The position numbers were made by a program, and so were the translations under genes. Below, one piece after another: positions 30,901-54,867 of a stretch of 64,000 nt of DNA (positions are counted from its first letter, which is position 1; every line of letters starts with the position of its first letter). The notes beneath the pieces are model-generated. The model was not told the DNA's origin and searched no databases. It worked only from the letters and a program-made list of their open reading frames with translations. Source of the DNA: Eledone cirrhosa (taxonomy: Eukaryota); contig OZ024742.1 in the NCBI GenBank assembly GCA_964016885.1, positions 130,882,001 to 130,946,000 on the forward strand, given 5' to 3'.

Positions 30901-32558
30901 ATCAACTGAATTGAAACTAACTGAAACAACAACTGCACGAATATCACTGATAAAGGGCAACAACTGCGTCCACAACATTATTGTCTTCAATAACTGTATT
31001 TGAAAAGGAACATTAAAACCAGGTGAGAGAGAGAGAGAGATGGATATAGAGGGGGAAAAGAGAGAAATAGTGGGTGAGAGTGAGAGAGAAAGACAGAGAG
31101 AGAAAGAGAGAGAGAGAGAGAGAGAGAGAGAGAGAGAGAGAGAGAGTGCATGTGAATTAGTGAATGAGAGAAAGAAGAGTGATAATAAAGGTAACACCGA
31201 CATCTTCAACAACAACAGCAACAATAACAACAGCAATAACATTCAATAAGAACAATACCAACAGATGAAATAGAGAGTGAGTTAGAGAGAGTCAGAGAGA
31301 GAGTGAGTTAGTGAGAGAAAGAGAGAGAGAGATAGAGAGATAGAAAGAGGGAGAGAGAGAGAGAGCAATGACGAAAAAATGCAACAACTGATAAAAAACC
31401 AAAAAAAACAAAAAGAAAGCGACAAAAATAATAAGATTCTAATCAAAAATAGAAATAAGGGGAGATAACTAATGAGCAGAACGAACGAAGGTAGAAGCTT
31501 CGCAGAACATGATTGAAAGAGGGTTGAAAAGTAGATTAAAAACAAGAGATAAAATATAAAAAGATGTGTGTAAGAAGGGACAAAAGCTTACTGGAGTGTG
31601 AAGAAGTGAAATATTGTTTCATGATAATATGAATGTAATGGAAGTATGAACTAGAAAGAGGATTGAAGTAGGGGGAGAATCCAGCTCTTTCTCTCTCTCT
31701 CTCACTTTCACTCAATACACTCACACACACACAAACACACACATATACACACATGCACATGCACACACACACACACATAGACACAGACACACACATGCAT
31801 AAACAGACAGACAGACACACACACACACCCCCACATATATATATATATGTAATGTAGAGTGCTTTTAATCTATTGTAAAACTATATTCATTGAGTAATCA
31901 ATGAACCATATTAATCTTTGGTTATATCTCTCTCTCTATCTCTCTCTCTCTCTCTCTCTCTCTCTCTCTCTCTCTCTCTCTCTCTCTCTCTCTCTCTCTC
32001 TATATATATATATATATATATATATATATATATATATATCAGGGAGTGGCTGAGAGGGAAGATGGATGCTTTGTCCACATTCATCCTATGGGTTTCATTT
32101 TTTATCAGTGCAACATTGCTATATACGTACATACATGATATATATACTTACACACACACATACATACGTACACGCAAAAACACACACATATATATATATA
32201 TTTATATATATATGGTATATGTAAAAACGCATATATATATATATATATATATATATATATATATATAAAAACAAATAACGAAACGAAATTAAATTTCGTT
32301 TCGTTTGTAACTCACTTTTGTATGACTGACGCTTAAACAATTAAGTTAAAAATGTACATCCACATATGTATACTGAAATACTAGTATGCATATGAATACA
32401 CACACGTGTACATATGTAGATGTACCGAGTTTTCACTGGTCACTTTACTGTGAGTGTCCAGCTATTCTGTATGTAAACACACATACAAACCGGTTTTTAG
32501 AGTCATACTGGTTTTTGAGGAAACACCTTTCCTCTATTCTCCAGAAAGCCAGACAAGG

Positions 32559-32603
32559 AATATTGGACTAGTTTCGATGTTGTTACATCTCATCAGCAAT
32601 ATT
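32559..32603 (-). ncRNA. Minimal type I hammerhead ribozyme (first of 16 left-arm copies, every 465 bp)
   Basis: RNA AAUAUUG-CUGAUGA-GAUGU(AACA)ACAUC-GAAA-CUAG-UC/CAAUAUU: 7-bp stem I, full core, 5-bp stem II, palindromic mini stem III, GUC cleavage triplet. Confidence 0.9.
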
Positions 32604-35600
32604 TACCTATCTTCCGGCCTCTCTAGAGAATCGTGAAAGCACATATCGCTATATGCTTTTTCTATGAAAATTAGTAGTGGGCAGACCAATTTGCATAGAG
32701 CGTGAGTACGTACCGGTTCAACGGAGACGATAAAAACAAATAACGAAACGAAATTAAATTTCGTTTCGTTTGTAACTCACTTTTGTATGACTGACGCTTA
32801 AACAATTAAGTTAAAAATGTACATCCACATATGTATACTGAAATACTAGTATGCATATGAATACACACACGTGTACATATGTAGATGTACCGAGTTTTCA
32901 CTGGTCACTTTACTGTGAGTGTCCAGCTATTCTGTATGTAAACACACATACAAACCGGTTTTTAGAGTCATACTGGTTTTTGAGGAAACACCTTTCCTCT
33001 ATTCTCCAGAAAGCCAGACAAGGAATATTGGACTAGTTTCGATGTTGTTACATCTCATCAGCAATATTTACCTATCTTCCGGCCTCTCTAGAGAATCGTG
33101 AAAGCACATATCGCTATATGCTTTTTCTATGAAAATTAGTAGTGGGCAGACCAATTTGCATAGAGCGTGAGTACGTACCGGTTCAACGGAGACGATAAAA
33201 ACAAATAACGAAACGAAATTAAATTTCGTTTCGTTTGTAACTCACTTTTGTATGACTGACGCTTAAACAATTAAGTTAAAAATGTACATCCACATATGTA
33301 TACTGAAATACTAGTATGCATATGAATACACACACGTGTACATATGTAGATGTACCGAGTTTTCACTGGTCACTTTACTGTGAGTGTCCAGCTATTCTGT
33401 ATGTAAACACACATACAAACCGGTTTTTAGAGTCATACTGGTTTTTGAGGAAACACCTTTCCTCTATTCTCCAGAAAGCCAGACAAGGAATATTGGACTA
33501 GTTTCGATGTTGTTACATCTCATCAGCAATATTTACCTATCTTCCGGCCTCTCTAGAGAATCGTGAAAGCACATATCGCTATATGCTTTTTCTATGAAAA
33601 TTAGTAGTGGGCAGACCAATTTGCATAGAGCGTGAGTACGTACCGGTTCAACGGAGACGATAAAAACAAATAACGAAACGAAATTAAATTTCGTTTCGTT
33701 TGTAACTCACTTTTGTATGACTGACGCTTAAACAATTAAGTTAAAAATGTACATCCACATATGTATACTGAAATACTAGTATGCATATGAATACACACAC
33801 GTGTACATATGTAGATGTACCGAGTTTTCACTGGTCACTTTACTGTGAGTGTCCAGCTATTCTGTATGTAAACACACATACAAACCGGTTTTTAGAGTCA
33901 TACTGGTTTTTGAGGAAACACCTTTCCTCTATTCTCCAGAAAGCCAGACAAGGAATATTGGACTAGTTTCGATGTTGTTACATCTCATCAGCAATATTTA
34001 CCTATCTTCCGGCCTCTCTAGAGAATCGTGAAAGCACATATCGCTATATGCTTTTTCTATGAAAATTAGTAGTGGGCAGACCAATTTGCATAGAGCGTGA
34101 GTACGTACCGGTTCAACGGAGACGATAAAAACAAATAACGAAACGAAATTAAATTTCGTTTCGTTTGTAACTCACTTTTGTATGACTGACGCTTAAACAA
34201 TTAAGTTAAAAATGTACATCCACATATGTATACTGAAATACTAGTATGCATATGAATACACACACGTGTACATATGTAGATGTACCGAGTTTTCACTGGT
34301 CACTTTACTGTGAGTGTCCAGCTATTCTGTATGTAAACACACATACAAACCGGTTTTTAGAGTCATACTGGTTTTTGAGGAAACACCTTTCCTCTATTCT
34401 CCAGAAAGCCAGACAAGGAATATTGGACTAGTTTCGATGTTGTTACATCTCATCAGCAATATTTACCTATCTTCCGGCCTCTCTAGAGAATCGTGAAAGC
34501 ACATATCGCTATATGCTTTTTCTATGAAAATTAGTAGTGGGCAGACCAATTTGCATAGAGCGTGAGTACGTACCGGTTCAACGGAGACGATAAAAACAAA
34601 TAACGAAACGAAATTAAATTTCGTTTCGTTTGTAACTCACTTTTGTATGACTGACGCTTAAACAATTAAGTTAAAAATGTACATCCACATATGTATACTG
34701 AAATACTAGTATGCATATGAATACACACACGTGTACATATGTAGATGTACCGAGTTTTCACTGGTCACTTTACTGTGAGTGTCCAGCTATTCTGTATGTA
34801 AACACACATACAAACCGGTTTTTAGAGTCATACTGGTTTTTGAGGAAACACCTTTCCTCTATTCTCCAGAAAGCCAGACAAGGAATATTGGACTAGTTTC
34901 GATGTTGTTACATCTCATCAGCAATATTTACCTATCTTCCGGCCTCTCTAGAGAATCGTGAAAGCACATATCGCTATATGCTTTTTCTATGAAAATTAGT
35001 AGTGGGCAGACCAATTTGCATAGAGCGTGAGTACGTACCGGTTCAACGGAGACGATAAAAACAAATAACGAAACGAAATTAAATTTCGTTTCGTTTGTAA
35101 CTCACTTTTGTATGACTGACGCTTAAACAATTAAGTTAAAAATGTACATCCACATATGTATACTGAAATACTAGTATGCATATGAATACACACACGTGTA
35201 CATATGTAGATGTACCGAGTTTTCACTGGTCACTTTACTGTGAGTGTCCAGCTATTCTGTATGTAAACACACATACAAACCGGTTTTTAGAGTCATACTG
35301 GTTTTTGAGGAAACACCTTTCCTCTATTCTCCAGAAAGCCAGACAAGGAATATTGGACTAGTTTCGATGTTGTTACATCTCATCAGCAATATTTACCTAT
35401 CTTCCGGCCTCTCTAGAGAATCGTGAAAGCACATATCGCTATATGCTTTTTCTATGAAAATTAGTAGTGGGCAGACCAATTTGCATAGAGCGTGAGTACG
35501 TACCGGTTCAACGGAGACGATAAAAACAAATAACGAAACGAAATTAAATTTCGTTTCGTTTGTAACTCACTTTTGTATGACTGACGCTTAAACAATTAAG

Positions 35601-54400: not shown

Positions 54401-54803
54401 GTTATTTGTTTTTATCGTCTCCGTTGAACCGGTACGTACTCACGCTCTATGCAAATTGGTCTGCCCACTACTAATTTTCATAGAAAAAGCATATAACGAT
54501 ATGTGCTTTCACGATTCTCTAGAGAAGCCGGAAGATAGGTAAATATTGCTGATGAGATGTAACAACATCGAAACTAGTCCAATATTCCTTGTCTGGCTTT
54601 CTGGAGAATAGAGGAAAGGTGTTTCCTCAAAAACCAGTATGACTCTAAGAACCGGTTTGTCTGTGTGTCTACATACGGAATAGCTGGACACTCACAGTAA
54701 AGTGACCAGTGAAAACTCGGTACATCTACATATGTACACGTGTGTGTATTCATATGCATACTAGTATTTCAGTATACATATGTGGATGTACATTTTTAAC
54801 TTA
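51462..54803. mobile_element. Retrozyme-like array 2: variant 465-bp unit, ~2.6 copies then ~4.6 inverted copies, inserted in (TA)n
   Basis: Same unit as array 1 with about 6 fixed substitutions; inversion junction at 52655-52657; 7 intact hammerhead motifs. Confidence 0.85.
52682..52726 (+). ncRNA. Hammerhead ribozyme (also 53147, 53612, 54077, 54542 on +; 51755 and 52220 on -)
   Basis: Core identical to array 1. Confidence 0.9.
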
Positions 54804-54867
54804 TATATATATATATATATATATATATATATATATATATATATATATATATATATATATATATATA

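Follow-up and report, generated by a model that had tools for sequence, protein, structure and literature searches.

How two tandem arrays can share the same inverted layout and the same outer ends inside TA microsatellites is the question raised by a 64-kb window of Eledone cirrhosa DNA (the whole stretch analyzed here, positions 130,882,001 to 130,946,000 of contig OZ024742.1), which is part of a 3.0-Gb assembly to which all genome-wide counts refer. The repeated unit measures 465 bp; array A spans 32266-40982 and array B 51462-54803, and each is flanked by (TA)n. Both are copies of a young, high-copy retrozyme without long terminal repeats (non-LTR) that bears the footprint which Penelope-like elements (PLEs) leave on integration, a known kind of element and not a new mechanism; what we add is a paired comparison of the points at which the arms of the retrozyme and of PLE-A, an autonomous PLE of the same genome, come to a stop. 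Each array is probably a single insertion of this non-coding, hammerhead-bearing retrozyme in a TA microsatellite, made by a PLE reverse transcriptase (RT)-endonuclease that primed twice on one RNA, itself probably a circle produced by the ribozyme.

Architecture of the Two Arrays

Mapping to unit offsets bore out the coordinates and the two-armed geometry that a preliminary description had assigned to both arrays. Their layout is alike, namely (TA)n, an arm, an inverted arm and again (TA)n, with the microsatellite adjoining all four outer ends. One outer end lies at unit base 1 in both arrays (the long end) and the other at offset 69 in A or 77 in B (the short end), which are the positions and TA fusions reported before. 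The long and the short end occupy distinct fixed sites separated by about 70 nt, and an insertion has one of each, a point to which the preliminary description had given too little weight.

Array A starts from a (TA)n target at 32231-32265 and continues with a long-end arm at 32266-39787 (RNA, i.e., ribozyme, strand minus), which comprises 16.2 units of 465 bp from offset 1 to 82 and carries just two singleton substitutions, in units 8 and 11, and no repeated variant. At its inner junction (39784-39871), offsets 83-162, which correspond to a long RNA hairpin, are skipped at a 4-nt AGTT microhomology, and a 69-nt piece (39784-39852, offsets 163-231), three extra bases (GAC) and a 16-nt duplication follow. 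The short-end arm (39872-40982, RNA strand plus, 2.4 units) then runs from offset 249 to the outer end at 69, next to (TA)14 at 40981-41008. Array B lies between (TA)21 at 51422-51463 and (TA)33 at 54802-54867; its long-end arm (51462-52657, RNA strand minus, 2.6 units, offset 1 to 266) and its short-end arm (52655-54803, RNA strand plus, 4.6 units, offset 365 to outer end 77) meet with a 3-nt TTC overlap. Compared with A, the haplotype of B shows six substitutions that are fixed in all units of both B arms.

Since the plus arms carry the ribozyme motif on their minus strand, the outer ends are 3′ sides of the RNA and the arms meet 5′-to-5′. The last 20 nt before the outer ends contain 45-65% U, compared to 32% for the whole strand, and the outer ends are located 300 nt (long) and 224-232 nt (short) 3′ of the predicted hammerhead cut, in agreement with the U-rich 3′ ends, the arm orientation and the distance of about 220-300 nt that had been noted earlier. 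The first hammerhead copy, of type I and present once per unit, maps to 32543-32614 on the minus strand, with its cut predicted between 32566 (C17) and 32565; a 13-bp perfect hairpin at 32277-32305 (offsets 12-40, present in each unit) is found in the tail bounded by the long-end and short-end sites.

Ends and Arms Across the Genome

At other loci the ends proved to be fixed and TA-flanked, not random. The long-end/TA junction pattern gave 2,708 genome matches and its reversed control 0, while the short-end/TA pattern gave 1,913 and its reversed control 1, both counts being inflated by overlapping matches, the second more than the first. The long-end site was read through internally in 6,360 matches. 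Insertions were then mapped at 30 best-hit loci, at the first 40 long-end sites on contig C1 (41 insertions), in 20 regions from the short-end list and at five loci found without reference to ends. Among the 41 insertions sampled by the long end, 32 had a long and a short end and none had two long ends; in seven of the 32 the short arm had just 7-22 nt and was read by eye, and one pair is a local duplicate. The remaining insertions were one ambiguous case, four one-armed in TA, three with a non-TA inner flank and one with a gap. As a check independent of the ends, an internal motif was used to list multi-unit loci on C1 (0-56 Mb); all 29 had at least one canonical end, 24 of them being already in the end lists and five new. 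Short ends fell at position 69 (21 cases), 74 (20), 72 (17) or elsewhere (9), that is, 58 of 67 at 69, 72 or 74, and inner arm ends were scattered over the unit. Two identical retrozyme insertions 17.6 kb apart (L100 and L101) represent a local segmental duplication.

The arms had a median length of 569 nt and reached 14.3 kb, and 82 of 143 were longer than one unit (40 of them longer than two); therefore, RT passed the cut site. This set omits L034 and L085 (junction in hairpin), L047 and L094 (gaps), L058, L059, L064, L119a and L120 (cut by other elements) as well as L084, L101, L115 and L122. Arms of the same locus carried an identical haplotype in 19 of 47 pairs and differed by no more than 1.6% in 44 of 47, with a median distance of 1-10% to arms at other loci; the own partner was strictly the closest arm in 20 of 47.

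The 465-nt Unit and Its Hammerhead

The unit has a GC content of about 0.37, and the arrays do not contain any open reading frame (ORF) of 150 codons. An Rfam scan by E-value identified Hammerhead_HH9 (38.9 bits, E 8.5e-9), below the gathering score of 52; at the gathering threshold, no hammerhead was reported in the window. The cut-to-cut monomer has a strong predicted fold (z −8.7). In 376 units from 84 loci, all common haplotypes retained an unchanged catalytic core, and common hammerhead changes were limited to an A-U to U-A swap in stem II, which is compensatory (main variant: 67 units, 24 loci), a C17 to U substitution, and changes in loops or flanks. Judged from this pattern, the hammerhead is under selection, and self-cleavage is predicted.

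Of the features that define retrozymes, those found here are a non-coding tandem unit within about 150-1000 bp, GC below 50%, a type I hammerhead in each unit, and dispersed mobile copies co-occurring with PLEs. An ORF with RT and GIY-YIG domains, as expected of an autonomous PLE, is absent from the non-coding arrays. The head-to-head 5′-truncated partner arm, the one-sided tail and the (TA)n bias of PLE-mobilized elements are present.

Single contigs of unit length plus 30 (495, 496 and 497 nt; depth 4.5-11; differing haplotypes) were recovered from public runs X1, X6 and X8. They lack flanking repeats, an absence that carries no weight because the depth is too low, and a DNA tandem would give the same closed contig; they were not used as evidence. 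Between 15 and 82% of the words of the unit are present in 20 public runs (17 studies, 17 organism labels), so that numerous related species may share the unit family; no RNA dataset was among those listed as containing it. No joint spanning either array, as an empty (TA)n allele would give, was seen in public runs, in which reads at the TA tracts were passed over.

PLE-A, an Autonomous Element With the Same Footprint

PLE-A has a 4,286-bp unit with an intact open frame of 1,278 codons that includes an Asn-rich insert. The encoded protein shows an RT YVDD motif, a C-x4-CxxC linker and a GIY-YIG-like end; a Pfam search of this protein found no family, and BLASTP matched it to a resident RT/GIY-YIG protein (E 2e-17). 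According to these motifs and this match, PLE-A is a very young, active Neptune-like PLE, with 124 of 124 scored protein matches rounding to 100% identity. A minimal hammerhead is held in its terminal repeat.

All 17 two-armed PLE-A copies with both ends visible were inserted in TA and had a long end at 4286 and a short end at 4228, which delimit a 58-nt tail; the ORF begins just before the short end, the tail lying in the ORF start. Forty regions sampled by end only added at least 24 further long-plus-short pairs, and long-end junctions numbered 15,037 genome-wide. An example is L146 (C3:66543400-66553300), and PLE-A insertions above 20 kb occur at L143-L145. Many short PLE-A arms (L167, L176, L177, L183, L190, L191, L198 and L200) have their inner ends at unit positions 3956-3974, just before a AAAATGGCG motif of the terminal repeat, which we take to be YY1-like; this cluster marks a probable transcription start.

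Arm Stops in PLE-A and in the Retrozyme

If both cDNAs reach the 5′ end of one RNA, the two arms are expected to stop at the same point. In PLE-A, stops were no more than 30 nt apart in 9 of 18 pairs (L037, L056 and 16 others selected through protein hits), in 8 of 16 pairs with both arms above 1.4 kb (permutation mean 1.1), and, in the unbiased sample, in 7 of 25 pairs (permutation mean 2.1, p 0.002). Retrozyme arms showed no such excess, either in absolute terms (4 of 52 pairs coinciding, p 0.15) or modulo the unit (9 of 52, mean 6.9, p 0.25; 7 of 52 by offsets), and among retrozyme pairs with both arms above one unit, 3 of 20 coincided (Fisher test against PLE-A, p 0.034). The lack of a shared stop is predicted for a template without a 5′ end, i.e., a circle. 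Stops within offsets 285-315, around the cut and ligation site, amounted to 17 of 132 compared to 8.6 expected (p about 0.005 for this predicted window).

Forward jumps within the unit were observed in arms of L111 (7 to 295, near the cut site), L116, L040 and L054 and at window position 39784, and are consistent with RT template skips. For L054, two independent RT skips were rejected: the skips share one and the same junction, with one substitution.

Weighing of the Alternatives

Twin priming in broken (TA)n is well supported by the fixed outer ends, the random inner ends, the haplotype shared between arms and the same signature in PLE-A. As to the rolling-circle RT with twin priming put forward in the preliminary description, the two internal primings at a (TA)n break stand; the inverted-arm and tail structure was already known from PLEs, and the circularity of the template is likely on indirect evidence.

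A number of observations weigh against this interpretation. Two insertions (L115 and L122) have two short ends; the partner is not among the closest arms in L058, L110 and L111; variants are repeated across units in 5 of 23 long arms; and the same deletion is found in two units of L054, whose junctions are identical except for one substitution, so that it was counted as later duplication. Concerning the arm stops, the long PLE-A pairs were picked by protein hits in both arms, four of the seven unbiased coincidences fall in an AT-rich palindrome with overlapping alignments, and the excess at the cut site gives p 0.23 under a scan of all windows. According to the accessible text of PMC11167929, unprocessed linear RNA served a PLE as substrate in vitro, and the ribozyme was dispensable. 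As for the partner enzyme, the unit matches PLE-A best over 21 nt, 18 of them identical (E 0.56), no significant homology was found to nine other PLE 3′ ends, which cover a small part of the PLE families of the genome, and several other TA-inserting PLE families are present. Given this lack of significant homology and the presence of those families, PLE-A is the best candidate partner, as yet unproven. An 8.6-unit retrozyme arm fused 5′-to-5′ to a 5′-truncated PLE-A arm at L048:6940 (C613) is possibly one insertion from two RNAs; it is a unique chimera, and the contig ends before its outer end.

In addition, the tails of the retrozyme and PLE-A share no RNA fold, and the fetched loci include no autonomous element with the ends of the retrozyme. 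Joints of the retrozyme to a PLE in 5′-to-5′ orientation were restricted to L048 (PLE-A) and L086 (another PLE family), neither being decisive. Arms abutting other elements at L058, L059, L064, L086, L090, L119 and L120 look like later insertions or deletions. The 18/21-nt match lies at window positions 32269-32289, in an arm of the tail hairpin and antisense to the PLE-A long end, and L043:7883-8391 ends in TA there.

The alternative that survives best keeps PLE twin priming and replaces the circle by a long linear RNA transcribed by read-through from an array already in place, a version that we consider unlikely, though not negligible. Arrays of 13-31 units are present in the genome as donors of such a size, PLE-A arms reach about three units (12 kb) from presumably linear RNA, and unprocessed RNA was the dominant substrate in the accessible text of PMC11167929. 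However, a linear template should leave the shared inner end of PLE-A, which retrozyme arms lack; haplotype differences are fixed throughout both arms, in every unit; loci of one haplotype almost never have unit-level singletons in common; and the conserved ribozyme in each unit would cut such a transcript.

It is improbable that a single priming event was followed by fold-back and self-priming of the cDNA, the short end being then the stop of the return strand. Self-priming fold-back has been proposed for inverted repeats of PLEs (PMC3846280, accessible text), and half of the long PLE-A pairs have near-perfect palindromic junctions (L151, for instance, with a loop of 3 nt), as do L045 and L091. 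Nevertheless, this explanation is disfavored because the short-end arm is longer than the long-end arm in 22 of 63 retrozyme pairs, with an extreme of 31 vs. 0.7 units (L067/L104), and because short-end-only insertions exist (L112, L117 and L121); the inner ends of the retrozyme are moreover independent, and two RT starts operate in vitro (PMC11167929, accessible text).

An equally small chance is given to insertions of about one unit per arm from which unequal crossover or slippage later made all multimers, an origin suggested for retrozyme arrays in the accessible text of bioRxiv 10.64898/2026.07.22.740005. It is favored by variants that recur at a fixed spacing in L038, L049, L067/L104 and L116 and by the repeated deletion in L054. 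Arms of more than one and more than two units are nevertheless common in very young copies with 0-2 singletons, tandem growth needs a starting dimer, and array A is devoid of repeated variants. The earlier statement that unequal crossover would not reproduce these ends holds, since it cannot create them, but it can alter unit number; likewise, the "16 rounds" of RT once read from array A are not proven, because later duplication or conversion is indicated by the repeated variants in those 5 of 23 long arms elsewhere.

An assembly artefact as the source of the inversion or of the copy number is extremely improbable: near-identical units are open to miscounting and the unit number of array A is that of the assembly, whereas thousands of loci have the same asymmetric ends with locus-specific haplotypes, and public short-read contigs contain end/TA junctions (X2 and X7) and plus-to-minus arm joints (X2, with short sides).

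Proposed Mechanism and Relation to Known Systems

For the preferred explanation, twin priming by a PLE enzyme on a probably circular retrozyme RNA, the following steps can be envisaged. Transcription, hammerhead cleavage and ligation would yield a 465-nt circle, whose tail region would be bound by a PLE ribonucleoprotein (RNP) that cuts both strands of (TA)n; by analogy with the accessible text of PMC11167929, the enzyme may be a dimer with two RT starts, and PLE-A may be its source. Priming would take place at base 1 from one DNA end and at 69-77 from the other, with TA or T microhomology at most starts, and both RTs would roll round the circle for several rounds. The cDNA 3′ ends would then join via microhomology or short templated inserts, repair would complete the head-to-head insertion, and some long arrays may later have been lengthened or homogenized at the DNA level. 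As a tentative generalization, which we hold at slightly less than even confidence, PLE integration could be an asymmetric twin priming in which one RNP uses one RNA and two dedicated starts, one per DNA end, a linear mRNA giving a shared 5′ stop and a circle giving independent rolling for up to tens of rounds.

Twin priming of L1, reportedly described by Ostertag and Kazazian in 2001, is said to produce an inversion when both break ends prime on one RNA, at the poly(A) tail and at a variable internal site, with non-overlapping arms. The unit described here, by contrast, has two fixed starts separated by about 70 nt, and the arms copy the same sequence.

Rolling-circle RT of retrozyme circular RNA (circRNA) to multimeric cDNA is a published model (PMC7229834, accessible text), and a partnership of retrozymes with PLEs has likewise been put forward as a hypothesis in the literature. 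In the accessible text of the respective papers, non-LTR retrozymes of metazoans (Cervera and de la Pena, 2020, PMC7229834; reviewed in PMC7761336; Li, Clavereau, Pollet, 2026) are similar to this unit in size, GC below 50%, type I hammerhead, dispersed monomers to multimers and co-occurrence with PLEs, whereas inverted two-armed insertions, fixed paired ends and TA targeting are features of this unit that the same text does not describe. Their repeats have been stated to show no motif pointing to a partner enzyme (PMC7761336, accessible text), and the word "inverted" has 0 occurrences in PMC7229834. No description of two-armed fixed-end retrozyme insertions was found in the literature searched, a coverage from which most subscription papers were absent.

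Within the accessible text on endonuclease-positive (EN+) PLEs, Neptune and Naiad (Craig et al., 2021, PMC8557442; Arkhipova et al., 2013, PMC3846280) resemble the unit in the head-to-head 5′-truncated copy, the tail at one end, the tandem copies and (TA)n targets that hide target duplications. In Chlamys PLEs, non-autonomous head-to-tail derivatives are known, a further likeness (PMC8557442, PMC3846280). The unit differs from Neptune and Naiad in having no ORF, a tail of 68-76 nt instead of 30-40 (58 in PLE-A), arms of up to 31 units and a full canonical instead of a minimal hammerhead. The inverted copy, one-sided tail and TA bias of PLEs are thus known, and the origin of their tandem and inverted structures was listed as unresolved (PMC8557442, accessible text).

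The closest biochemical parallel is the Anolis Poseidon element PAc (Frangieh et al., 2024, PMC11167929), for which, in the accessible text, both strands were cut and extended in vitro and the tail is bounded by two internal starts of RT. An AT-rich target and two internal starts are shared with the unit, the PAc protein is predicted to be dimeric, and PLE-A resembles the Anolis element in its tail in the ORF start. The PAc starts lie within the beginning of the ORF, in an AC-rich stem-loop of a linear RNA, whereas here they are U-rich, non-coding and probably on a circle, and neither PAc start is assigned to a given DNA end in that text.

Other Features of the Window

Fragments of several non-LTR retrotransposons, read from translations, occupy 7000-28400, 44900-50200 and 61000-64000 and comprise L1/Tx1-like ORF1 and ORF2 pieces, a REL-endonuclease type and RTE-like pieces. 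Between the arrays, GIY-YIG pieces of another PLE family are located at 42266-42400 (plus) and 47803-48264 (minus; Pfam GIY-YIG, E 5e-4). A tRNA-like sequence at 3016-3079, at the Rfam threshold (30.8 bits), is probably a tRNA-derived short interspersed element (SINE).

Significance

If asymmetric twin priming is correct, the retrozyme and PLE-A would constitute a natural linear-vs.-circular experiment that explains the inverted arm and one-sided tail of PLEs, and circRNA retrotransposition would be visible from genomic footprints. The unit, together with an intact, active young PLE having the same footprint, offers a concrete substrate/enzyme pair with exact predicted RT starts, and would provide a precedent from nature for circular RNA being written into DNA through rolling-circle target-primed reverse transcription.

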